Part shown: positions 20,684 to 31,996 of the stretch, one piece after another
Numbering within the stretch: the first letter of the stretch is position 1
Layout: each line of letters opens with the position of its first letter
From: an uncultured bacterium
GTDB lineage: Bacteria > Patescibacteriota > Patescibacteriia > Magasanikbacterales > UBA922
Direction of reading: 5' to 3'
Assembly (NCBI GenBank): GCA_937861125.1
Contig: CALMAY010000038.1
Coordinates: 254,921-318,920 of the forward strand
DNA length: 64,000 bases
Program-made: the position numbers and the translations under genes
Notes under the pieces: model-generated
The model's input: only the letters and a program-made list of their open reading frames with translations
Told to the model about the DNA's origin: nothing
The model's database searches: none

Positions 20684-21730
20684 CTACCGATTCGCCCGCG
20701 GAGACGGCAATGCTACTTCTGTAAGCAACTGCTCATCTTCGAGCAACACCGCAGTCCCACGCACCACTGCAGTGAGTGGATCGTCAGCAATACGCACAGG
20801 GATCTCCGTCTCACGTGCAATAATCGTATCAATCCCGCGCAGCAACGCACCACCACCACAGAGCAGCATTCCACGCTCATGAATATCCGCAGTCAATTCT
20901 GGTGGTGTCATCTCGAGCGTCATCTTGACGTGGTCCACAATCGTATCCACGCCACGAGAGAGCGCCTCACGAATATGTCCGTCTGTCACCATCACCTCTT
21001 TTGGTAGCCCTGTCATCACATCACGTCCACGCATCGGAAACTCGATCTGCTGACTCAGTGGGAGCGCTGATCCAATTTTGAGTTTGATCATCTCTGCATA
21101 ACTCTCTCCGATATAGAGGTTAAAGACTTCGCGTGCATACTGAATAATACTTTTGTTCATCTCCTCACCGGCAATCGGCGTGGATTTCCAATTCACAATC
21201 CCGTGCAGTGAAATCACCGCCACCTCAGTACTACCACCCCCAATATCCACCACCATATTTCCAATCGGTTCAGAGATCGGCATACGCGCACCAATTGCTG
21301 CTGCCATTGGTTCCTGTATCAAAAAGACTTCGCGTGCACCCGCCGCAATCGTCGCATCCTCCACTGCCTTGGTCTCCACCTCAGTCACGAGTAGTGGCAC
21401 TGCAGTCACGACACGTGGACGCTTGCGCCAGCCAGACTGACCCTCAGTCACTTTGTCGATAAAGTAGGCGAGCATTTTTTCTGTCACCTCATAATCTGAG
21501 ATAATACCCTTTGAGAGTGGACGAGAGATCTCGATATGCGGTGGCGCTTTGCCCAGCATGTTTTTGGCTTCCTGCCCGACGGCGAGGATGCGCTCCGTCT
21601 TGGTATTAATTGCCACAACAGACGGCTCGTTGATGACGATCCCTTTTTCTTTGGTATAGACGCGTGTATTGGTCGTCCCCAAATCAATTCCAATTTCACT
21701 GCGCGTGGCGGCATTCCAAAACTTACGCAT
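20684..21730 (-). CDS. mreB: rod-shape determining actin homologue MreB
   Basis: IGIDLGTTNTRVY, DIGGGSTEVAVISL and LCGGGALLRGID motifs. I chose the ATG at 21730; the track start is a TTG. Confidence 0.93.
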   Translation of the reverse strand: MRKFWNAATRSEIGIDLGTTNTRVYTKEKGIVINEPSVVAINTKTERILAVGQEAKNMLGKAPPHIEISRPLSKGIISDYEVTEKMLAYFIDKVTEGQSGWRKRPRVVTAVPLLVTEVETKAVEDATIAAGAREVFLIQEPMAAAIGARMPISEPIGNMVVDIGGGSTEVAVISLHGIVNWKSTPIAGEEMNKSIIQYAREVFNLYIGESYAEMIKLKIGSALPLSQQIEFPMRGRDVMTGLPKEVMVTDGHIREALSRGVDTIVDHVKMTLEMTPPELTADIHERGMLLCGGGALLRGIDTIIARETEIPVRIADDPLTAVVRGTAVLLEDEQLLTEVALPSPRANR

Positions 21731-22979
21731 ATTGTTGTATCTTTTCAATAAGACTGTCTAATGTCACCATACTACTTTCTTCACTGACACGTTCTTTCCA
21801 CTCAACTGCGTTTTGCTCGAGTGTTTTGCTACTGACCACGAGACGAAGTGGGATACCAATCAAATCACTATCCGCAAATTTCTCTCCCGCACGTGCATCA
21901 CGATCATCATAGAGCACCTCGATCCCCGCCTGCTGCAGTTGTGTATAGAGTGCATCAGCTTTCATTTTTTCTTCGTCCGTTTTGGCCAGTGAGACCAAAT
22001 GCACGTGAAATGGTGAGACTGCCATAGGCCATTTGATTCCTTTGTCATCAGAAAACTTCTCTACCAGTACTCCCATCAAACGGGTGATACCAATTCCATA
22101 TGATCCGAGCCACACCGCAGTGTTTCCACCCTCACTATCCGCAAATCGGAGTCCCATCTCCTCACATTTGGTACGACCAAAGTTAAAGATGTTGCCCACC
22201 TCCGCCGTTTTCACCTCCTGCAATTCTTCGCGTGTCACACCGAGTGTTTTGAGTGTCTCGTCGTTGAGTACCTCAGTATTGATGGCGATATGTTTGTCAC
22301 GGTTGATATAGATACTATCCTCACCCGCATCAGTAATCGTCTGAAACTCATGACTAAACTGTGTAAACGCACCACCAGAAGCAAAGGTCACAAAGGTATC
22401 CTCAGCAATCCCCACACGACGAAAGACGTTCATATACGCCTCAATCGTCTTGTCATAAAACGCCTGATGTGTCGCCTCGTCGGTCGCGTATGAGTACATA
22501 TCTTTCATCACAAACTCACGGCCGCGCATGATACCACTTTTGGCACGCAGCTCATTGCGTAGTTTGGTTTGAAATTGATAGACGTATACTGGCAAGTTTT
22601 TGTAACTGACAATATAGTTTTTCATCATCTCAGTAATCTGCTCCTCGTGAGACCACCCAAAGCCAACTTCCGTCCCATTTTTGAGTTGTGATTTGAACCA
22701 AACATCTACCATCTCATCACTCCAACGATTCGTCGTCTCCCACACTTCTTTGCGCTGCAGTGAGGTCATGATGAGCTCGAGTCCACCGATGGCATTCATC
22801 TCTTCGCGGACGATCTGTTTAATTTTTTCAACCACGCGCAAACCCAGTGGCAGATAGGCGTAGACGCCTGCCATTTCTTTGTAGACATATCCTGCACGAA
22901 TCAGCAGCTGTGCGTTTTTGGACACTTCATCTGCTGGTGCGTTTTTGAGTGTTTTGGTAAAAAGTAATGATTGTTTCAT
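21723..22979 (-). CDS. proS: prolyl-tRNA synthetase (short form without large editing insertion)
   Basis: RAKSGIMRGREFVMKDMYSY motif 2 context and a C-terminal anticodon-binding domain (HVHLVSL...); 418 aa. Confidence 0.88.
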   Translation of the reverse strand: MKQSLLFTKTLKNAPADEVSKNAQLLIRAGYVYKEMAGVYAYLPLGLRVVEKIKQIVREEMNAIGGLELIMTSLQRKEVWETTNRWSDEMVDVWFKSQLKNGTEVGFGWSHEEQITEMMKNYIVSYKNLPVYVYQFQTKLRNELRAKSGIMRGREFVMKDMYSYATDEATHQAFYDKTIEAYMNVFRRVGIAEDTFVTFASGGAFTQFSHEFQTITDAGEDSIYINRDKHIAINTEVLNDETLKTLGVTREELQEVKTAEVGNIFNFGRTKCEEMGLRFADSEGGNTAVWLGSYGIGITRLMGVLVEKFSDDKGIKWPMAVSPFHVHLVSLAKTDEEKMKADALYTQLQQAGIEVLYDDRDARAGEKFADSDLIGIPLRLVVSSKTLEQNAVEWKERVSEESSMVTLDSLIEKIQQYA

Positions 22980-22982
22980 ATA

Positions 22983-23435
22983 TTATGTATGTGAGCGATT
23001 GACGGTATATCGATATACTGCCAAGAGAAAAAGACAAAAGAGAAAGAGCGCGACGTTCCACGGGCGCAAGACGCGCAGTGACTGCAAAAAGAGCAGTAGC
23101 ACGAGACTCGCAGAAAGCATCGCCGAGTACCAAAATCGTACTCCCACCAGTCGAAACAGCGGTATTCCCTCGTCCGAACGCCACGACGCGAGCAGCGACC
23201 AGACGACAGTAGATGTGCCCAAGAGGGCAAAAAAGAAGCTCAAATAAAAGAAAAGAAACCCAGCGAGGTTACTATGAAACGGATCTACATTGAACAGCAC
23301 CAAACCAAAGGATACCCAGCAGAGCGCTGTGCCAAAAAGCATGGTGAGGAGGTATTGACGAAAGGTCATAGAAACAAAAGGGAGCTCTCCAGTTGGAGCT
23401 CCCTGTATTGTATGGGAAATGGGGGTGTTTGGCAA
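22983..23435 (-). CDS. hypothetical membrane protein
   Basis: About four hydrophobic helices; no recognisable family. Confidence 0.45.
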   Translation of the reverse strand: MPNTPISHTIQGAPTGELPFVSMTFRQYLLTMLFGTALCWVSFGLVLFNVDPFHSNLAGFLFFYLSFFFALLGTSTVVWSLLASWRSDEGIPLFRLVGVRFWYSAMLSASLVLLLFLQSLRVLRPWNVALFLFCLFLLAVYRYTVNRSHT

Positions 23436-23496
23436 GGGGGTTAAACTAAATAAAAAAATTCATTATTTATGCAAAAATTAGTATAAAAAATAATAG

Positions 23497-25101
23497 CTAA
23501 CTATTTAAAAATTCCACAAATTCATCTGTATGAGCTGGGGCTAATTTACCCTCTTTTAATTGCCGAAGAATATCTAACGGCTTCTTAAATTTTTCATTAT
23601 TAGAGGTCTTATCAAAATTAACATACGTTTCGAGATCCACTTCAAAACTCTTAACACTTGAAGTAAATTTGTTGCAGGCATTTACAATCGCCTCATTCCA
23701 TTCTTCGTGTTTTGGAGTTTTATTATTGTCTTTATCAAACATGACTGAATGTCTTATACCAAATTGTTGACACAATCTCATAAAATACGGGATATTACTT
23801 TTGTTTCCACACTCAACAATATATAAATTTTTATCTAAATTATTTTCTTTTAGTAGATAATTTAAAAAAGCCTTGTCTGATGCCCCCTCAACAAGGACTA
23901 CTTTATCCACAAAAAACATAGTATTCCTATCTGGATTTAGCCACAAAATAAAATCAAAATCTGGAGCTTGAATTTGAAGTTCTCCCAAGAATTCTTCACT
24001 CGCACTATATTTAGTTGTCACACCAGAATTTTTGACAAATCTAGAAATACACTTCAGTGAATCATTTTTAGAACTAATTAAATTGGGTGAATGGGTGCAG
24101 ACTAAAACCTGACTACTTTCAGTTTTTGCTAGCTTTTCTAGATTTTTTAAAAGCTTACATTCTTGGTCATAGTGCAGTAAAGCCTCCGGCTCTTCATAGA
24201 GGAGAAGGGTCATATCACCATTAAATTTCTTCTTATCTGATTTCATTTTTTTTCCTTCAATCTCAGCCCACAACAAAAGCAAATTATTAACAATTGAGCG
24301 CTGCGCACCAGACCCCAAATTCATAGGGTCTTCCTCTATATTTGTCTCGTTAGAAATCAAGTTTAATTTTGCACCTGATAAAATTATATCCTCTGGTGAA
24401 GGTGGCGAAATTGAAATCTGTGATTTCAAACCCCAATCACTAAGTCTTAAAGATAAATTCTCCTCAATCTCATTTACACTCTTAAACTCACCAGTAGCTT
24501 TTACTGGACTCTTTAAATCATTAGTAAACTCTTTAGTATCTTGGACAAGTTTATTCCAAGATGGTAAGTCAGTTAATGTTTCTGTTAAAATTCTACTAAC
24601 CAATTTTGAAAAAAGTGATGATTTAGTTTTTTTAAGTTCTTCACCAAGTTCTTTTACAGCTGGAATATAAATCACCGTACCAAGTTTTCCCACAGCAACA
24701 TTTTTAGCACCAAAAAACTCTTCTTCACTTTCCTTAACATCTCCTGTTTGGTTATCTTTTATATAACCATGAACCTCCCCTCTTAAAGAATCTGTCTTAT
24801 ATCTTTTTACCACTCTTAAAATATTTCCATCAAGTTTATATTGTTCTGGCACTTGAGAGAATTCATTTGCACTTAGTTGATATTCAATCAATATTTCTAT
24901 TGGCTGATGAGCAGCATCAGAACGAAGAAAATCTTCTAATTTTACATCATAATCTCCATAAAACGCTCTTATTGCATGCATTACAGATGATTTACCCGCA
25001 TTATTTTGCCCAACACAAGTCCACACATCATCCAAAGGACCAGAAATAGTCACATCTTTAAGCGAGCGAAAATTAGTAATTTTAATAGTTTTTATTTTCA
25101 T
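23497..25101 (-). CDS. OLD-family nuclease (ABC/AAA-type ATPase + C-terminal Toprim)
   Basis: Walker A GQNNAGKSS, signature-like LGSGAQRS, Walker B LLLYEEPEALLH and H-loop VCTHSP. The C-terminal Toprim has VVLVEGASDKAF and MFDKDNN (DxD). It overlaps the upstream methylase gene by 4 nt. Confidence 0.8.
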   Translation of the reverse strand: MKIKTIKITNFRSLKDVTISGPLDDVWTCVGQNNAGKSSVMHAIRAFYGDYDVKLEDFLRSDAAHQPIEILIEYQLSANEFSQVPEQYKLDGNILRVVKRYKTDSLRGEVHGYIKDNQTGDVKESEEEFFGAKNVAVGKLGTVIYIPAVKELGEELKKTKSSLFSKLVSRILTETLTDLPSWNKLVQDTKEFTNDLKSPVKATGEFKSVNEIEENLSLRLSDWGLKSQISISPPSPEDIILSGAKLNLISNETNIEEDPMNLGSGAQRSIVNNLLLLWAEIEGKKMKSDKKKFNGDMTLLLYEEPEALLHYDQECKLLKNLEKLAKTESSQVLVCTHSPNLISSKNDSLKCISRFVKNSGVTTKYSASEEFLGELQIQAPDFDFILWLNPDRNTMFFVDKVVLVEGASDKAFLNYLLKENNLDKNLYIVECGNKSNIPYFMRLCQQFGIRHSVMFDKDNNKTPKHEEWNEAIVNACNKFTSSVKSFEVDLETYVNFDKTSNNEKFKKPLDILRQLKEGKLAPAHTDEFVEFLNS

Positions 25102-25859
25102 ACTATTTTTTGAAACACAAATAGATGCTCATGCATAATAAGCAAAAAGTTGCTTTCCTGCGACCGTTTTACCCAAAAACCAGTTGCCTTGCAGTTATGT
25201 TGGTGTTTAATAATATCCTCTCTCAAACTGAAGCCAGACTTCAAAAAACGCTCCATTACCTTAAATGCAAGAGGTTGGTACATCTTGTTTCGTCTCGTGT
25301 CTCCCATAAGCACCGCACAATACTTTCCAGGCTTGAGCGTGCGATATAGTTCCCCTGCTACTTTTTCCATCTCATCACAAAACGCATCAATATCATGTAT
25401 GTTTGAAAGGTCGTTTTTTAACTTACCTTCACTATATTTGATAATATCAGCGTATGGCGGATGTATGATAATTAAATCAGCACTCTCCTCAGGCATCTTT
25501 TTCAAATCACGCGCATCCCACAAATATAACTTGTGCCAAGATTTATTTTTTACAGGAAAATCAAGACACTTTTTTGTTCGCTCAAGTGCTTTTTTGTTTA
25601 CATCAGAACAAATACTATTTCGATTCAAAATCTTTGCCTCAATCGCAGTCGTACCACCTCCCACCATCGGATCAAATACAACATCCTTTTCTTTTGAGTA
25701 CCTCAAAATAAGATTACGAACCACTTCTGGAGACCAATTCCCCCTCCAGTCAGACGTGTGTGTCGCCCATTTTCCACGACGCGGAAAAGACCAGACTGTT
25801 GTACATTCTAGATCAAACTGTTCGGGGTGAAGTTTTAGTTCTTTTATAAAAGACATCAC
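25098..25859 (-). CDS. SAM-dependent DNA methyltransferase (amino-MTase with FDPMVGGGTT motif I followed by IIHPPY motif IV)
   Basis: Motif I VVFDPMVGGGTTAIEA, then motif IV LIIIHPPYADI about 70 aa later. It has 4-nt overlaps with both flanking genes. Confidence 0.75.
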   Translation of the reverse strand: MMSFIKELKLHPEQFDLECTTVWSFPRRGKWATHTSDWRGNWSPEVVRNLILRYSKEKDVVFDPMVGGGTTAIEAKILNRNSICSDVNKKALERTKKCLDFPVKNKSWHKLYLWDARDLKKMPEESADLIIIHPPYADIIKYSEGKLKNDLSNIHDIDAFCDEMEKVAGELYRTLKPGKYCAVLMGDTRRNKMYQPLAFKVMERFLKSGFSLREDIIKHQHNCKATGFWVKRSQESNFLLIMHEHLFVFQKIV

Positions 25860-26476
25860 TTTGCAATTTCAAAAATTTTTGCGACTAATTGAGGACGAGC
25901 GTAAAAAGCACGGGTTGTTGAATTTTTCGATCCCTTTGTTCTTGCTTGTATCCACTTTCCATCTCTTCCTGTCAAAGCTTCAAATCCTTGGGTTTTTAAT
26001 TTATTACGTATAAAATCATAATCAGCTTTAATCTCCATAATCAAATCATCTGTTTCTGCAAAATCAAGACTAACAACATCGATAATTTCAGCTTTATCAG
26101 CATTTTTCCCATGCCAAGCAACTGCACAAAAAACAATAGTTTTTAATTTAGCCCAACAATGACTACTAAAAAAATCTTCTTCAAGTAGTTGTTTCTGGTT
26201 AAGCATCGTAATCGCCATTGTTTCTTTTGGTTTAAGCTTGCCTTTTCTATCATAATTGAAACTAACTGATTTCAACTCATAAGTAAGACCGTTTGGAGCT
26301 TTTGAATTATTATTAGTCAATCCCGCAAGTCTTTCAAGAACAAGACCTTTCCAACCTTTATTTTGTTTTCCAGTCTCAAAGGTCGTAATTTTATATTGGA
26401 TAGCCAATTCTCGCAGATCTTGACCTATATATTTTTTAAGATTTTCAATTGCTTTCGCACGAGTAATTATATTCAT
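25856..26476 (-). CDS. MutH/Sau3AI-fold (GATC-type) restriction endonuclease
   Basis: Aligns by eye along its length to E. coli MutH: KGWKGLVLERLAG ~ KGWIGVLLEIWLG, TYELKSV ~ GVELKTI (E-x-K), GKWIQARTKG ~ GEYLQIRPKA, RAFYARPQL ~ RGFYLKKNF. Confidence 0.7.
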   Translation of the reverse strand: MNIITRAKAIENLKKYIGQDLRELAIQYKITTFETGKQNKGWKGLVLERLAGLTNNNSKAPNGLTYELKSVSFNYDRKGKLKPKETMAITMLNQKQLLEEDFFSSHCWAKLKTIVFCAVAWHGKNADKAEIIDVVSLDFAETDDLIMEIKADYDFIRNKLKTQGFEALTGRDGKWIQARTKGSKNSTTRAFYARPQLVAKIFEIAK

Positions 26477-26481
26477 AATTT

Positions 26482-27459
26482 TTAATAATTAGTCACCAAA
26501 ACTTCAAAAACTTTTCCTCTTTTACTTGCGTTAGAGTTAATTGCTCTCCCAGCCTGCACCTTGTTAATTTTTACCTTTTTATCTTTTATTTCAGAATATA
26601 TTTCATTGATAAATGGTGTATCTGAGTTTGAAAGCATAACAAAACAACCACGCTTGTGTAGTTCTACAAAAGTATCTCGAAGTTCAATCTGTTCTTTATC
26701 CAAAAAAACATCTTTAGTGTACGAAGTAAATGATGCCGTTTTACTGACAGGATAGTAAGGTGGATCGAAATATATAAAATCTCCTTTTTTTGCCTTTTTT
26801 AACACTTCTTTATAATCCTGATGTTTAATTTCTACTTTTGCAAGTGATAGTGATACTTTTCTCAAGTTAACAGCGTCACAAATAGACGGATTGTTATAAG
26901 ATCCAAAAGGCACATTGAACTCCCCTTTTCCATTAACACGATACAATCCGTTAAAGCATGTACGATTGAGATAAATAAACCGGGCAGCAATTTGTAAATC
27001 ACTTAATTTTTCTATTTTCTTGGCGCGTATTTTGAGAAAAAAATCTTTATCGTATTTATACGTCTTAAGAAGTTTAATGAGAGATTCTACATTATCTCGT
27101 ATAACGATATATGTTGTTACCAACTCTAGATTCATATCAGAAAGTACAGCTTTTTTTGGAAGAAGATCAAAAAAAACAGCACCGCCTCCGACAAATGGTT
27201 CAAAATATGTATCTTTATTTGGGTCAAATTCATCTGGCGGATACAGACCCATACTACTAAACTGTTTCAATAACTGTCTTTTTCCCCCGACCCATTTTAC
27301 AAATGGCTTAGGTCTATCAACCACAATCTTTTCAACGTCAACCATCTCTTTTGGCTCTGGTGCCAAATCAACAGCTCGCTGTGCAAATATAAAATTAACA
27401 CCAAATTGATTTTGAATCTGAAGAACTTTTTCTGCTGTTGTCATATGTTTGAAATACAA
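26482..27459 (-). CDS. Dam-family (D12 class) N6-adenine DNA methyltransferase
   Basis: FVKWVGGKRQLL, motif I FEPFVGGGAVFF and motif IV FIYFDPPYYP. The start could alternatively be the ATG at 27444. Confidence 0.88.
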   Translation of the reverse strand: MYFKHMTTAEKVLQIQNQFGVNFIFAQRAVDLAPEPKEMVDVEKIVVDRPKPFVKWVGGKRQLLKQFSSMGLYPPDEFDPNKDTYFEPFVGGGAVFFDLLPKKAVLSDMNLELVTTYIVIRDNVESLIKLLKTYKYDKDFFLKIRAKKIEKLSDLQIAARFIYLNRTCFNGLYRVNGKGEFNVPFGSYNNPSICDAVNLRKVSLSLAKVEIKHQDYKEVLKKAKKGDFIYFDPPYYPVSKTASFTSYTKDVFLDKEQIELRDTFVELHKRGCFVMLSNSDTPFINEIYSEIKDKKVKINKVQAGRAINSNASKRGKVFEVLVTNY

Positions 27460-27865: not shown

Positions 27866-27927
27866 GATCGTAAGATCACTAACTTTGTTGCTTAGAGCCT
27901 CCCGCAAGGGAGCCTCTTTTGCTTTTT
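27866..27927 (+). ncRNA. candidate ~60-nt small RNA, cis-antisense to the 3' end of the NYN gene
   Basis: It begins about 7 nt after the promoter -10. It ends in a 10-bp hairpin AGAGCCTCCC-GCAA-GGGAGCCTCT (one mismatch) followed by TTTTGCTTTTT. There is no plus-strand ORF. Confidence 0.45.
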
Positions 27928-28667
27928 ATACCTATCTCTCGATACCAACAAATAAAATCATTGATTTTTTGAATATCAAAAATGAGAAGACCTTTACTAC
28001 TCAAACCACCCAATTCTCGCGAAATCTTCCCTGCAGTAGCGAATAACACAACCTTTTTTCCCATAGACATCAATTTTTGGATAGTGTCTGCAAAATCACT
28101 ATCCCCACTCCACAACACAAACACGTCAGCTCTACCCCGCTCACAATCCAACGACATATCAGTGCCGATTTCAACATCAAAATTACATTTTCTATCCTCA
28201 ATGTAGAGTTCTCCTTGTTTATTCATTTCAGAGAATTTGCCATTGAGGTATTCAACTGTCTCACCACTATATTTACGCAATAAAGAATGCTTGATAAACG
28301 GACTGAGTAGCGCAGTGGACTGAGGCGATGAACGTCCCACGTCTATTGAAAATCTCATTATTTTAACTGGTTTTGTTCTAAACAAATATCCGTACTGCTC
28401 TATATCCTTTTTTTCTTTTTCCGAACGCTCATCCCCTTCTAAATAACCACTATAAAAATGAACCGCCTGAACGGTACTAAACGAGTCAAAAAATTGCTTT
28501 AAGCGCTTAATGTCAACGTGCCACCCCAGTTTTGTGCTCCACGGACGAACATTTGCATAATCAATATACATACGAGTAGTACCAGAAAACATATTCTCTA
28601 GCTCTTGTATTACCCGTGTTTTTTCTTTTGCAATATCAGCAATCTTTTGTGTTTTTGGTACAAACAT
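27879..28667 (-). CDS. NYN/LabA-like (PIN-like) domain protein, putative RNase
   Basis: MYIDYANV... N-terminal acidic motif and VFVLWSGDSDFADTIQKLMSMGKKVVLF, characteristic of the NYN/LabA family. Confidence 0.72.
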   Translation of the reverse strand: MFVPKTQKIADIAKEKTRVIQELENMFSGTTRMYIDYANVRPWSTKLGWHVDIKRLKQFFDSFSTVQAVHFYSGYLEGDERSEKEKKDIEQYGYLFRTKPVKIMRFSIDVGRSSPQSTALLSPFIKHSLLRKYSGETVEYLNGKFSEMNKQGELYIEDRKCNFDVEIGTDMSLDCERGRADVFVLWSGDSDFADTIQKLMSMGKKVVLFATAGKISRELGGLSSKGLLIFDIQKINDFICWYREIGIKSKRGSLAGGSKQQS

Positions 28668-28676
28668 ATTGAGACG

Positions 28677-28886
28677 TTAGATCTTTTGATACCTATACTG
28701 ATATCGAATGTTATCCGCAAAAAATTGACCTGGTGAGACTGCTTGGATAAACTGCAAATATACAAACTCAGGTACATCAAAATACTGGTAACTATCACCA
28801 GACACAAACTCAACTATCAACAAAGAATTTTCTTTGTCGTACTGGGCAGTAGATACATGAGACGAGTTGAGAGTTATTTTTTGCAT
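28677..28886 (-). CDS. KTSC domain protein
   Basis: 69 aa; the pattern SSHVSTAQYDKENSLLIVEFVSGDSYQYFDVPEFVYLQFIQAVSPGQFF matches the KTSC domain layout. Confidence 0.7.
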   Translation of the reverse strand: MQKITLNSSHVSTAQYDKENSLLIVEFVSGDSYQYFDVPEFVYLQFIQAVSPGQFFADNIRYQYRYQKI

Positions 28887-29035
28887 ATATCAATATGTTA
28901 CACCATATTAACAAAATAAAAAATGTTTGATATACTTATGTTGTAAGAAGTAAGACCTGTCGCGTTGGGTTACCGGATGGCAACTCGTTAAAGCGAGAGG
29001 CTTTTTTATTTTATGCCAAAAAGACGAATGACTAG

Positions 29036-29071: not shown

Positions 29072-31996
29072 TTACGGCCGTCCATCAGGCCCAAAGACCT
29101 GCGACCAATCCGTCGCATAGATTTCATCAATCAAGCGAATCATCTTTTCGCGCAGTTTTTCTATATCTTTGTCGGCACCCAGGAAGCTCTGACTGCTTTG
29201 ATCATTGAGATAGTAGTAGGTCAGTGCACCGACATCTCCATACGCCTGATAGCTACGGAGTGAACTCACTGCCATTTGATACAGCAGGAGCTGTTCTTTG
29301 TCATGGGCTTCGAGTTTTTTCTTTGGTGAACCAGTCTTGTAGTCCATGATCTCAAGCAGTCCGTCTTCGCGTCTATCGATACGGTCAATTTTTCCAGTCA
29401 CCGTGTATTCACCGAGCTTGATCTTGAACCCGCTCTCGAGAAACAGTGGAATGCGCCAGGTACCATCGTGCTTTTTGTAGTATTCACTCACGATCTCTTT
29501 GCCTTTGTGATAGTACTCTTCGCGCTGTTCTCGACTCTCATACCAATCAGGAATCCACGACTGCTCAAAGAGCGACATCATCTCCTCCACTGTTGGAACA
29601 CTCAGTCCCTCCGTCTTGGTCACTGGTGCAGTGTCAAAGAGTGAACTCTGTGAGATACTGTTGCGTTCACTGAGGAGTTCATAAAACCGCTGGAGCGTGA
29701 GGTGCATACTCTGCCCAAAACTAAAATGTGGACTCCCCTTTTGTGGGATTTTGAGAATGCGCTCGATCTTGTACTGATACGGATCTTCTTCAAAGAGATG
29801 GAGCTGTGAAAATGAAAATGTTTTTGGGAGTTCGTACTGCACTGCCCCTTCTTCACCGCGAACGATATTGACGTGCTGGACTTTGTGGAGCAGCTGTGAC
29901 TCGGTCGGGATCTCGAGTCCGACACTGATAGTCTCAACGTTGAGTTCACTGACAAACTGACTGATCTTTTTTTCACGCACACCACCATAACTTTTGGCAC
30001 TCGTCAGTGTCAGAGTGTGACGTGCACGGGTACAGGCGACGTAGCACAAACGTCGTTCCTCTTCGATATGTGCATCACCACTTGGCAGCATTTCTTTGAC
30101 GAGCCCATCTGGGAGTGCGATCGCGTCCCCGCGTCGACGAGATGGGAATCGGTCAGAGACCATGTTGACGACAAAGACATGATCAAACTCAAGTCCTTTG
30201 GATCCGTGTACGGTCATGATACGAACTGCTCCCGCTGGTGCTTCCTCTTTTGGCAGCGCACCCTCGTCCCCTGATTCGAGCAGTGTTTCGAAATATGCGA
30301 GGAACTGTCGGACATCACACTGTGGATGGTTGACCTCATATTCGTTCATGCGATCCAGAAATGCGCGCAGATGTGCGACAGCACGGACCGCCATCGCGTT
30401 GCCCCGTGCATCTTCGTCTGTGAGATAGGTAAAATAGCCACTGTTCTCAAAAAAGTGATACAGCACCGTCGTCGGACTCTCACTCTTGGCTTCGCTCATA
30501 CCTGCGTGAATCAGTGAGAGGAGTTTGTCACACACAGCAATCGCCTCACCAGTCATTCCACTCTGCGCGACCTGCTTTAGTGCCTCGTAGTATGAGACTG
30601 CTTTTTGTTTAGCAAATGATGCAAAGCTCGTTATATCGTGTTCACTGAGTCCAAACATCGGCAGACGCAGGAGCCGATACACCGCATTGGACTCACGGTG
30701 ATTATCAAGCAACTGTAGATAGGCAATGGTATCGAGCACAATACTCTGACGAAACAATCCACTCGAGGCAGAGTAAAAAAATGGAATCCCACGCTTGCTG
30801 AGCGCCTCCATAAAGCCTTCGGCATGATTGTTGGCACGCACGAGAATTGCAAAGCTATCCCACTCACAATTCTCTGCGGTGCGAATCTCAATCATCCGCT
30901 CCACCACCCCACGCACCTCATCCTCGCCAGTCGGATACGCAACATGCGTTACGACAGACTGCTTAGTGCTTAGTACTGATTGCGTACCTGCTGACACTAG
31001 CCGTTTGTCAATCCCCAGCTTCACTTCCAACCGATCTGGATTGTTGTGCTGCACCAGCGCATACGACGCATCCAAAATTTCCTGACGTGAACGATAGTTT
31101 TCATTGAGCACCACACTCACTGCATCGGGATAGTCTTCTTTGAATCGCAGGATGTTGCTGACACTCGCACCACGAAAGGCGTAGATACTCTGATCATCGT
31201 CGCCCACAACGCATAATTTGCCACTCTGCCCAACGATATGCTTGGTGAGGATATACTGAGCCCAGTTGACGTCCTGAAACTCGTCTACGAGCACATACTT
31301 GAACCGCTTTTGAAGAATTGCGGCGACACGTGGACGCTCGGTGAGGAGCTTGACGCTGTAATACATGAGATCACCAAAATCCAGTGCATTGTGTTTGAGG
31401 AGAAGTTGATTGTATTGACGATAGACTGCGGCGAGCTCCAGCAGTCGTGTTTGTTCATCTTTTGATTCTGCCTCAGCGTCCGCATCAATCGCCATGTTTT
31501 GTGCATAGGTCAGATACTGTTCAGGAGAGATCAATTCATCTTTACATTTGAGGAAATGACGAATCAAGCCATCGAGATGTCGAGATGGGTTACCAATTGG
31601 ACGATAGTATGAAAGACCAATATCATAGACCGATTCACGCAGCATCAACCAGCTATCAATCTCGGTATAGAGTTTGAAACGATTTGGGATCCCCACATCA
31701 AGTCCAAACTCCTCGAGCAGCTCCTGTGCAAAGGCATGAAACGTACTGATGTGCATCTGCGCGTACCCAGTATCAATGAGACTATCCACGCGCTCCTGCA
31801 TCTCAAACGCCGCGGCATCCGTAAAGGTAAGCGCGAGGATCTCCTCAGGTTTCGCCAATCCGTTTTTGACCAAGTAGGCGATCTTTTCGGTGATCACCGT
31901 CGTCTTGCCCGTCCCCGCTCCGGCGACAATCAACAAATGACCGTCGCTATATTGGACGGCCTTTTGTTGGGATGAGTTGAGTGCTCGTTCCCCCAT
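29072..31996 (-). CDS. UvrD/PcrA-family SF1 helicase fused to a C-terminal PD-(D/E)XK (RecB/AddB-like) nuclease domain
   Basis: Helicase motifs AGAGTGKTT, VDEFQD, GDDDQSIYAFRGA, TVHGSKGLEF and VACTRAR. The C-terminus has GKIDRID...LEIMDYKTG (D..D/ExK). Confidence 0.85.
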   Translation of the reverse strand: MGERALNSSQQKAVQYSDGHLLIVAGAGTGKTTVITEKIAYLVKNGLAKPEEILALTFTDAAAFEMQERVDSLIDTGYAQMHISTFHAFAQELLEEFGLDVGIPNRFKLYTEIDSWLMLRESVYDIGLSYYRPIGNPSRHLDGLIRHFLKCKDELISPEQYLTYAQNMAIDADAEAESKDEQTRLLELAAVYRQYNQLLLKHNALDFGDLMYYSVKLLTERPRVAAILQKRFKYVLVDEFQDVNWAQYILTKHIVGQSGKLCVVGDDDQSIYAFRGASVSNILRFKEDYPDAVSVVLNENYRSRQEILDASYALVQHNNPDRLEVKLGIDKRLVSAGTQSVLSTKQSVVTHVAYPTGEDEVRGVVERMIEIRTAENCEWDSFAILVRANNHAEGFMEALSKRGIPFFYSASSGLFRQSIVLDTIAYLQLLDNHRESNAVYRLLRLPMFGLSEHDITSFASFAKQKAVSYYEALKQVAQSGMTGEAIAVCDKLLSLIHAGMSEAKSESPTTVLYHFFENSGYFTYLTDEDARGNAMAVRAVAHLRAFLDRMNEYEVNHPQCDVRQFLAYFETLLESGDEGALPKEEAPAGAVRIMTVHGSKGLEFDHVFVVNMVSDRFPSRRRGDAIALPDGLVKEMLPSGDAHIEEERRLCYVACTRARHTLTLTSAKSYGGVREKKISQFVSELNVETISVGLEIPTESQLLHKVQHVNIVRGEEGAVQYELPKTFSFSQLHLFEEDPYQYKIERILKIPQKGSPHFSFGQSMHLTLQRFYELLSERNSISQSSLFDTAPVTKTEGLSVPTVEEMMSLFEQSWIPDWYESREQREEYYHKGKEIVSEYYKKHDGTWRIPLFLESGFKIKLGEYTVTGKIDRIDRREDGLLEIMDYKTGSPKKKLEAHDKEQLLLYQMAVSSLRSYQAYGDVGALTYYYLNDQSSQSFLGADKDIEKLREKMIRLIDEIYATDWSQVFGPDGRP

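Follow-up and report, generated by a model that had tools for sequence, protein, structure and literature searches.

INTRODUCTION

OLD-family nucleases are sorted into classes by the genes that surround them, and least is understood of the biology of Class 1, the single-gene type. Class 1 OLDs, which include P2 Old, the Thermus scotoductus protein TsOLD (6P74), Vibrio cholerae OLD and Escherichia coli YbjD, are single polypeptides that join an ABC ATPase to a Toprim domain, and are defined as isolated genes (PMC10568477, PMC6755086). Here we describe an OLD gene that is not isolated. It is the last of four genes in a stretch of 64,000 nt from contig CALMAY010000038.1 of an uncultured bacterium of the Magasanikbacterales (Patescibacteriota), referred to below as the window, and follows three genes that are predicted to form a Type II restriction–modification (R-M) cassette: a Dam-family methyltransferase (M1), a MutH/Sau3AI-fold endonuclease (R) and a second amino-methyltransferase (M2 or MT2). 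An original prediction, made from the sequence alone, had described this block as a GATC-type R-M system joined to an OLD nuclease that might act as a second-layer effector or as a guard.

The partners and activities of the known OLD systems provide the background for this comparison. P2 Old senses the inhibition of RecBC and then cleaves tRNA (PMC13261556), while V. cholerae OLD is a single-gene defence that nicks DNA (PMC12392090). Class 1 OLDs have been published as nonspecific 5′–3′ exonucleases that also linearise circles (PMC10568477). In Class 2 (Gabija) the OLD protein GajA is accompanied by the UvrD/PcrA/Rep-like helicase GajB, and Class 3 OLDs belong to retrons. In Class 4 (PARIS) an ABC ATPase sensor, AriA, and a Toprim effector, AriB, are usually encoded separately; PARIS responds to Ocr, an anti-restriction protein that acts as its trigger (PMC11464382), and functions as a back-up to R-M.

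Related proteins have also been found inside other defence operons. In the work of Payne et al. (2024, doi 10.1101/2024.01.29.577857), a screen of Hma, BREX, DISARM and Type I R-M operons found defence genes, many of them encoding ABC ATPases, widely embedded in all four, 96.7% of them in the same orientation, with PADLOC PDC candidates in Type I R-M, BREX and DISARM. One of these, the ATPase-Toprim fusion HEC-04 of Hma, requires its Walker A and Toprim residues, and a back-up role for embedding is discussed in the same work. The classical precedent, also discussed there, is PrrC, an ABC-ATPase-containing suicide nuclease that lies between the Type I R-M genes of EcoprrI and acts when restriction is inhibited. 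PMC13064643, citing Miller et al. (2005), describes RloAB as an OLD-like ABC ATPase plus a Toprim-type nuclease within Campylobacter Type I R-M loci and also names AbiL. In MADS3–4, ATPase/Toprim-type proteins are paired with a methylase (PMC11464382). For Patescibacteria, PMC12455944 mentions in passing an island with a full Type I R-M system and ‘one putative ATP-dependent endonuclease’.

The general concept of an embedded ATPase-nuclease as back-up defence is therefore already published, and the present case is an extension of it, not a surprise; the suggestion that an OLD gene in an R-M context was undescribed does not stand in that form (doi 10.1101/2024.01.29.577857; PrrC; PMC13064643; PMC11464382). 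The searchable literature yielded no account of a clade of full-length OLDs that is specialised for R-M operons of Types I, ISP, II, IIG and III, nor of an OLD gene appended to a Type II cassette.

RESULTS

R-M genes are frequent neighbours of the OLD clade

The window OLD belongs to a clade of about 40 clusters (at least 50% identity, ∼530 aa) from Patescibacteria; those close homologues that carry names come from Patescibacteria or Parcubacteria metagenome-assembled genomes (MAGs). Metagenome contigs provided 18 independent contexts for this close clade. R-M genes directly abutted the OLD gene in 13 of them, and in 16 an R-M gene lay within two genes. As a control, the 114 immediate neighbours of 72 distant OLD-family homologues (22–31% identity, many phyla) were scanned with Pfam. 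The R-M families found were ResIII (3), SWI2_SNF2 (2), Methylase_S (2) and N6_N4_Mtase (2), so that at most nine of the 72 homologues had an R-M neighbour. The excess in the close clade was significant for direct adjacency (13/18 versus ≤9/72; Fisher p = 1.4e-6) and for R-M genes within two genes (16/18; Fisher p = 1.1e-9). The enriched linkage to R-M genes by which the original prediction proposed to be judged is thus present in the close clade.

The R-M neighbours were of several types, and the assignments to Types I, II, IIG and III were backed by PADLOC models. Type I operons had the order HsdM-(x)-HsdS-OLD-HsdR (L164, L078/L079, L165–168, L081, L177, L178 and L094) and Type III operons the order Mod-OLD-Res (L169–172 and L176); a complete R subunit was always present in both. 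Sau3AI-like Type II loci read RadC-OLD-(465-aa double MutH-like protein)-C5 methylase (L077 and L173), with a NOV_C gene between in L080. In addition, we found the order RM protein-GIY-YIG-x-OLD-S subunit in a Type IIG-like locus (L002), an OLD gene two genes downstream of a Type ISP gene (Type ISP-x-OLD, L087) and an OLD gene adjoining a divergent Vsr/C5-methylase/PDDEXK_5 cluster (L174). Only two loci had no R-M neighbour: L001, where an Nhi/AbiO-like helicase adjoins the OLD gene, and L003. The spacing between the OLD gene and its R-M neighbour ranged from an 11-nt overlap to a 14-nt gap.

In the same-orientation nesting within multi-gene defence operons, and in the back-up role that has been proposed for it, these loci resemble the embedded defences HEC-04, HEC-01 and the PDC candidates. 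The clade differs from them in that its best PADLOC match is Old, its hosts are Patescibacteria and its embedding reaches Type II, IIG-like, III and ISP systems. The S-OLD-R and Mod-OLD-Res homologues are nested between the genes of their operons, whereas the window OLD is appended at the 3′ end, after the last methylase gene.

The partner genes of the window did not share in this association. Searches with tblastn over 156–180 loci found no homologue of the Dam, MutH-like or MT2 proteins beside any other close OLD homologue. We accordingly rejected a conserved four-gene system, and the expected linkage of OLD to the GATC system itself was not found.

Other genes recur in the OLD-bearing operons. 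A Fic_N+Fic gene stands at the head of or within four Type I operons (L164:3236–4399, L165:627–1796, L078:58–933 and L177:2942–4303), and these operons therefore carry several passengers. DUF2130 proteins repeatedly adjoin OLD-family genes: one lies within a Type I operon and one directly after the OLD gene (L078:2934–4106 and L174:4169–5269), and two more are among the 114 neighbours of the distant homologues; they may be a further associated component. Small stand-alone GIY-YIG ORFs (82–84 aa) lie just upstream of the OLD gene at L001:3254–3502 and L002:7394–7648 and could be accessories for mobility or nuclease activity. Five loci have RadC ahead of the OLD/R-M block (L077:7335–7988, L173:5329–5997, L004:3451–4134, L177:346–1017 and L178:640–1287), while the block in the window adjoins proS-mreB-mreC (mreB, 20684–21748); in these genomes the neighbourhood of radC and mreB may be a hotspot at which defence cassettes integrate. 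Among the distant homologues, one OLD-like group (L018, L028, L109, L113 and L133; 23–26% identity) has a Type III Mod homologue 450–750 nt away, so that the family may have acquired its association with R-M on more than one occasion.

OLD genes have moved between R-M operons of different types

In a distance tree, OLDs that are 85–89% identical were found in both Type I operons (L164 and L078) and Sau3AI-type operons (L077, L173 and L080), the L164 and L077 proteins being 89% identical. The window OLD is sister to this group, at 74–77% identity. The DNA homology between OLD genes from different contexts ends within ∼12 nt of the ORF ends. Since the R-M type switches at such high identity and the homology stops at the ORF borders, the OLD gene has moved repeatedly between unrelated R-M operons. 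As far as sequences can tell, there is no sign of co-evolution with a particular R-M partner. The most divergent clade members (L177 and L178) are both from Type I operons, and the OLD gene may therefore have been placed as S-OLD-R ancestrally.

These data also bear on how the four genes of the window came together. Other Patescibacteria carry the three-gene R-M cassette with no OLD gene (see below), which makes the OLD gene an add-on. Because the linkage of OLD is not to the GATC system and the cassette is self-contained elsewhere, the four-gene unit is best described as a lineage-specific joining of two modules. The members without an adjacent R-M system (L001 and L003) indicate that the OLD protein is probably autonomous. 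Moreover, a specific physical partnership between OLD and R-M proteins is unlikely given that OLDs of 85–89% identity sit in unrelated R-M types, and the proposed guard that would physically monitor the R-M enzyme is unlikely for the same reason.

The OLD protein resembles Class 1 in sequence and fold

The 534-aa protein matches AAA_15 (2.4e-31), OLD-like_TOPRIM (PF20469, 5.9e-16) and the PADLOC Old model (5.9e-54). An ABC ATPase with a helical insert occupies residues ∼1–345 and the Toprim domain begins at about residue 396. Across 57 homologues, the Walker A (GQNNAGKS), ABC signature (GSGAQR), Walker B/D-loop (EEPE) and H-loop (THSP) motifs are invariant or nearly so; within Walker A, G31, N33, G36 and K37 are invariant, as are E405, G406, D456 and D458 of the Toprim domain. 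The catalytic residues align with those of TsOLD (P-loop, LVEG and DED), at an overall identity of only ∼17%. A Foldseek search with the AlphaFold model (pLDDT 85.7, pTM 0.79) ranked TsOLD (6P74) first (E = 7e-24, TM 0.63/0.65), followed by GajA and then by the retron Eco8 OLD. The originally predicted OLD architecture, with ATPase and Toprim catalytic residues, is thus confirmed; the protein is a bona fide OLD nuclease and, as judged from the conservation of its residues, is probably active.

Among the OLD classes the closest is Class 1. TsOLD is the best match in both sequence and fold, the EEPE and E...DxD residues are conserved, and the single polypeptide of ∼530 aa is without the size increase that comes from the helical insert in the Class 2 Toprim domain. 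Its context sets it apart from Class 1 as defined, since the window gene overlaps a methylase gene and the clade lies habitually in or beside R-M operons. Unlike in Gabija, no UvrD/PcrA/Rep-like helicase gene adjoins the OLD gene in the window or in the clade contexts. A UvrD-like gene does lie at 29–32 kb in the window, and we rejected it as a Gabija component on account of its distance of five genes, its fusion to a PDDEXK nuclease domain and its lack of conservation beside homologues. This 974-aa protein (29072–31996, five genes upstream of the block), a UvrD helicase fused to a PDDEXK_1 nuclease and AddA/AddB-like, is relevant to the handling of DNA ends in the host. Class 3 is unlike the window locus in that no reverse transcriptase domain was found in the neighbours (the retron non-coding RNA was not searched for), and the NCBIfam model of retron Eco8 gave 59 bits against a cutoff of 250.

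The similarity to PARIS extends to the ABC ATPase sensor and Toprim effector. The PADLOC AriA model matched residues 1–342 (1.4e-32), whereas solved AriA matched only residues 295–359. PARIS differs in being usually split and in not being characteristically embedded in R-M loci; its AriB effector is a DUF4435 protein, and DUF4435 gave no match here, where the domain is OLD-like_TOPRIM. RloAB and AbiL consist of two genes with an RloB-type (PF13707) nuclease, whereas the window protein is a fusion with no match to PF13707; RloB was the commonest neighbour in the control set (five matches) and was found only among the distant OLD homologues. The best 25 PADLOC matches listed for the window OLD included no HEC model. 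A phage origin was also considered, and viral contigs searched for close-clade OLDs yielded only five distant matches (22–34% identity), giving no evidence for it.

The three upstream genes form a predicted Type II R-M cassette with a MutH-fold endonuclease

M1 matches PF02086 (5.1e-59) and TIGR00571 (271.8 bits; cutoff 114.85) and has the DPPY motif. Its closest solved relative is DpnM of the DpnII system (2DPM; 5.6e-71, 242 bits). M2 carries motif I (FDPMVGGGTT) ahead of motif IV (IIHPPY) and matches PF01555 (N6_N4_Mtase, 4.3e-25) in two stretches of permuted order and PADLOC MTase_II PDLC03376 over its full length (7.5e-85); its match to DpnA (5HEK) is weak and partial (6.9e-4 over ∼60 residues). 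R matches PF02976 (6.4e-11), the Sau3AI model NF040973 (2.7e-17) and PADLOC REase_II PDLC03553 (1.3e-12), the last being a match that is common to Sau3AI-like enzymes. The Pfam scan of R gave no match to the DpnII-family model PF04556, only the MutH/Sau3AI models being found.

The MboI system has the gene order M-R-M, and the endonucleases of MboI, DpnII and LlaDCHI belong to the DpnII family and do not have the MutH fold. The proposed kinship with the MboI/DpnII-type GATC systems therefore holds in part: two methylases accompany one endonuclease and M1 is DpnM-like, but the endonuclease has a MutH fold and M2 is not DpnA-like. R resembles Sau3AI in belonging to the GATC-cutting MutH/Sau3AI family; it is a single-domain protein of 206 aa, unlike the Sau3AI-like proteins of 465 aa. 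Family membership of M1 and R suggests that the cassette would be specific for GATC. The frequency of GATC in the window (observed/expected 0.88) is unremarkable among palindromic 4-mers.

We noted that R departs from the canonical active site. In an alignment with E. coli MutH, the ELK motif corresponds to residues 67–69, and Asn62 takes the place of the first acidic residue. All nine of the aligned family members (the window protein and eight close relatives) have an Asn, within APNGL, at the position of the MutH catalytic residue D70, and none has an acidic residue between E48 and E67. E48, E67 and K69 are invariant in this alignment, while the Sau3AI-like relatives in L077 and L173 retain Asp at the D70 position. 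R may have a variant active site, be a nickase or be inactive.

The R family is large (1782 homologues), and its named members are all from Patescibacteria/Paceibacterota or unclassified bacterial MAGs. We found the M-R-M cassette without OLD in L182, where a beta-lactamase-family gene follows it, and in L181, where a PLD-SNF2 gene and an Eco57I-like gene come after it; an unrelated NYN gene is also found upstream of the cassette in L181. From its gene content and contexts the cassette is a predicted self-contained Type II R-M unit that is common in Patescibacteria, and its wide occurrence without OLD argues for a functional R. Mismatch repair was rejected as the main role of the Dam and MutH-like pair, as a methylase lies on either side of R in each of the three contexts seen and the block is a low-GC island.

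The block is compact and compositionally distinct

The four minus-strand ORFs were found in the order and with the operon-like packing originally described (23497–27459), as borne out by ORFs, profile matches and junctions (Table 1). This arrangement was identical in all 15 contigs with an identical OLD. Read from the sequence, the Dam TAA stop is followed by 5 nt and then by the ATG of the MutH-like gene, and M2 and OLD have ATGA in common, an overlap of 4 nt; both spacings agree with the prediction. Two further spacings depend on the choice of start codon. The stop of R lies within GTGATG, so that the predicted 4-nt overlap with M2 holds for the GTG start, while the ATG that gene callers favour gives an overlap of 1 nt. 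Similarly, the block begins 7 nt after the dciA stop only with an in-frame TTG at 27459 (giving an M1 of 325 aa), whereas the ATG used by gene callers lies 22 nt past that stop. The spacing of the genes suggests that the R-M and OLD genes are co-transcribed and translationally coupled.

A consensus scan placed a terminator-like hairpin shortly downstream of the OLD gene, where the transcription unit probably has its 3′ end. Scanning of the dciA-Dam junction revealed neither a promoter-like nor a terminator-like site. The promoter scan gave 15 sites compared with 18.5 ± 4.5 in shuffled sequence, and is uninformative for this phylum.

Table 1. Positions of the genes and sites of the block within the 64,000-nt window
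Feature	Start	End	Strand	Description
M1	26482	27444	−	Dam-family (DpnM-like) N6-adenine DNA methyltransferase; 320 aa from ATG 27444
R	25856	26476	−	MutH/Sau3AI-fold endonuclease, presumed GATC restriction enzyme; 206 aa, single-domain
M2	25098	25856	−	Second amino-methyltransferase; 252 aa from ATG, 253 aa if GTG 25859
OLD	23497	25101	−	OLD-family nuclease; 534 aa, ABC ATPase + Toprim
OLD Walker A	24988	25011	−	GQNNAGKS, residues 31–38; aligns to the TsOLD P-loop
OLD Toprim catalytic core	23728	23916	−	Residues 396–458; carries E405-G406 and D456-x-D458
Terminator-like hairpin	23379	23404	−	9–10 bp stem, 6 GC pairs, T-rich tail; ∼93 nt 3′ of the OLD stop
dciA stop/Dam ATG junction	27445	27466	−	22 nt; GC falls sharply, from 52% to 33%

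The composition of the island is foreign. Its GC content is 33.9%, compared with 42.8% in the rest of the window, 51.9% in dciA and 45.8% in proS, in agreement with the AT-richness that the original prediction had noted by eye. The two lowest of the 64 1-kb GC bins fall within the block, at 2.7 and 3.2 standard deviations under the mean. When the surroundings of the island were searched for terminal repeats and target-site duplications, they gave only short AT-rich direct (14 nt) and inverted (16 nt) matches between the spacer after OLD (23444–23480) and the region upstream of the KTSC gene (28875–28923); given their mixed orientation, these are probably due to chance.

Between OLD and proS, a 150-aa ORF (22983–23435) has no Pfam match, contains the terminator-like hairpin and was annotated by gene callers in one of seven identical contigs; it is probably not a gene. 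Just past dciA on the other side (27879–28886) are a 262-aa NYN-domain protein with weak matches to the PADLOC NYN and HEC-09 models and a KTSC protein. The GC content of this region is lower, at 36–39%.

DISCUSSION

We hold with moderate confidence, giving it about an even chance, that the block consists of two separable defence modules in which the OLD protein acts on its own as a second-line nuclease and is expressed together with R-M. The first module is an autonomous Type II cassette made up of the DpnM-like Dam methylase, the short MutH/Sau3AI-fold endonuclease and the second amino-methylase. The second is a full-length OLD, nearest to Class 1 (TsOLD) by sequence and fold, from a Patescibacteria clade usually located within or next to R-M operons, whatever their type. 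Although co-transcribed and translationally coupled with the R-M genes, the OLD protein would act autonomously, with its ABC ATPase as sensor or gate and its Toprim domain as nuclease. It would provide a second-line response, probably abortive or growth-arresting, once a phage has passed or disabled restriction. The examples of P2 Old, PARIS and Gabija suggest by analogy that the trigger would most likely be a phage counter-defence or a cue related to DNA ends, rather than contact with a particular R-M protein; the nucleic acid attacked may be DNA or tRNA. Location within R-M operons would give the OLD gene both co-regulation and co-transfer.

Several points weigh against this reading of two modules. 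The exact four-gene arrangement was found in one population only. The sample of contexts is small (18), its loci come from a pattern-based search, with possible bias, and related genomes are not fully independent; the gene calls of the control set are crude. The trigger, target and abortive phenotype attributed to the OLD protein are entirely by analogy, and the activities of the family vary widely, comprising an exonuclease, a nickase, a tRNase and the Toprim-dispensable YbjD (PMC13261556). Furthermore, DNA-mimic anti-restriction proteins do not classically target Type II enzymes, and the case for a pure ‘anti-anti-restriction’ role in the window is the weaker for it.

A tentative alternative is that the OLD nuclease is coupled to restriction itself, loading on the ends or nicks made by any R-M type and degrading DNA as a 5′–3′ exonuclease like P2 Old and TsOLD, so that restriction would become irreversible in small-genome bacteria without RecBCD-type degradation. 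The R-M type would then be irrelevant since the OLD protein would depend on the common product, DNA ends, and this proposal accounts for the independence of R-M type equally well as the favoured reading does. The occurrence of clade OLDs with Type I, II, IIG-like, III and ISP systems fits such a type-independent substrate, an endonuclease gene directly adjoins OLD in the Type I, Type III and Sau3AI-like contexts, and the published exonuclease activity of Class 1 OLDs is in keeping with it. In the window, by contrast, a methylase gene stands between OLD and the endonuclease gene, and two clade members have no R-M neighbour. An ungated exonuclease would also hit host breaks, the tRNA cleavage by activated P2 Old and the nicking by V. 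cholerae OLD (PMC13261556, PMC12392090) do not correspond to the activity proposed, and the sequence data are silent on substrate.

We give no more than a similarly low probability to pure hitch-hiking, in which R-M operons would act as a ‘genomic sink’ and the OLD gene, whether a defence or a selfish gene, would be independent of R-M and have no functional interplay with it; insertions would be tolerated there, a promoter would come free and the gene would travel with mobile R-M cassettes. The unrelated defence genes found embedded in Type I R-M, BREX, DISARM and Hma operons, the other passengers in the same operons (Fic, DUF2130, GIY-YIG and T5orf172) and the end of OLD homology at the ORF borders are all as expected from such a process. 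Against this, the rate of direct adjacency in the close clade far exceeds that of the distant homologues, adjacency has been kept over a divergence to ∼52% identity, and start/stop overlaps have been re-established repeatedly. Together these three observations suggest selection for co-expression and not neutral accumulation, with co-regulation and functional synergy inseparable in these data.

A bolder version of the functional link, which we consider doubtful, is that the clade is a dedicated, type-agnostic restriction partner. Its members would read a common signal, either the ends and nicks made by restriction or the failure of restriction, and turn a single or evaded cut into irreversible destruction or abortive arrest.

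We consider it very unlikely that the OLD protein is a physical guard of the PrrC type, held inactive by binding to the R-M enzyme and freed when a phage protein inhibits that enzyme. PrrC in EcoprrI is the precedent for such a guard, and the tight coupling of the genes would fit the formation of a complex. In place of Toprim, PrrC has an anticodon-nuclease domain, and it is physically masked by one specific R-M enzyme, whereas the OLD clade is promiscuous across R-M types, with closely related OLDs beside structurally unrelated enzymes (HsdR, a Sau3AI-like endonuclease, or a MutH-like endonuclease with two methylases) and some members without any R-M partner. Least probable of all is that the cassette does not restrict, so that Dam and the MutH-like protein would serve in methyl-directed nicking or repair, or the endonuclease would be inactive, and OLD would be the true effector of a methylation-guided system like MADS (methylase + ATPase + Toprim protein; PMC11464382): the missing catalytic Asp of R speaks for it, while the invariant E48, E67 and K69, the REase_II match, the many cassettes without OLD and the complete R subunits of the Type I and Type III contexts, where OLD is no substitute for the endonuclease, speak against it.

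The value of this clade lies in the fact that the R-M type varies while the OLD protein stays nearly the same, which amounts to a natural experiment on embedded OLDs. It addresses whether embedded ATPase-nucleases cooperate with, back up or merely ride along with the surrounding system, and what the OLD ATPase senses. The window provides a compact four-gene construct, with the natural three-gene cassette that lacks OLD as its control. If the clade were a type-agnostic restriction partner, it would form a fifth OLD class by the context-based logic of the present classification, and would be the first nuclease with a demonstrated functional tie to Type I, II, III and ISP systems alike. For the Patescibacteria, the arrangement bears on the question of how defences are layered in genome-reduced bacteria that are mostly without CRISPR.

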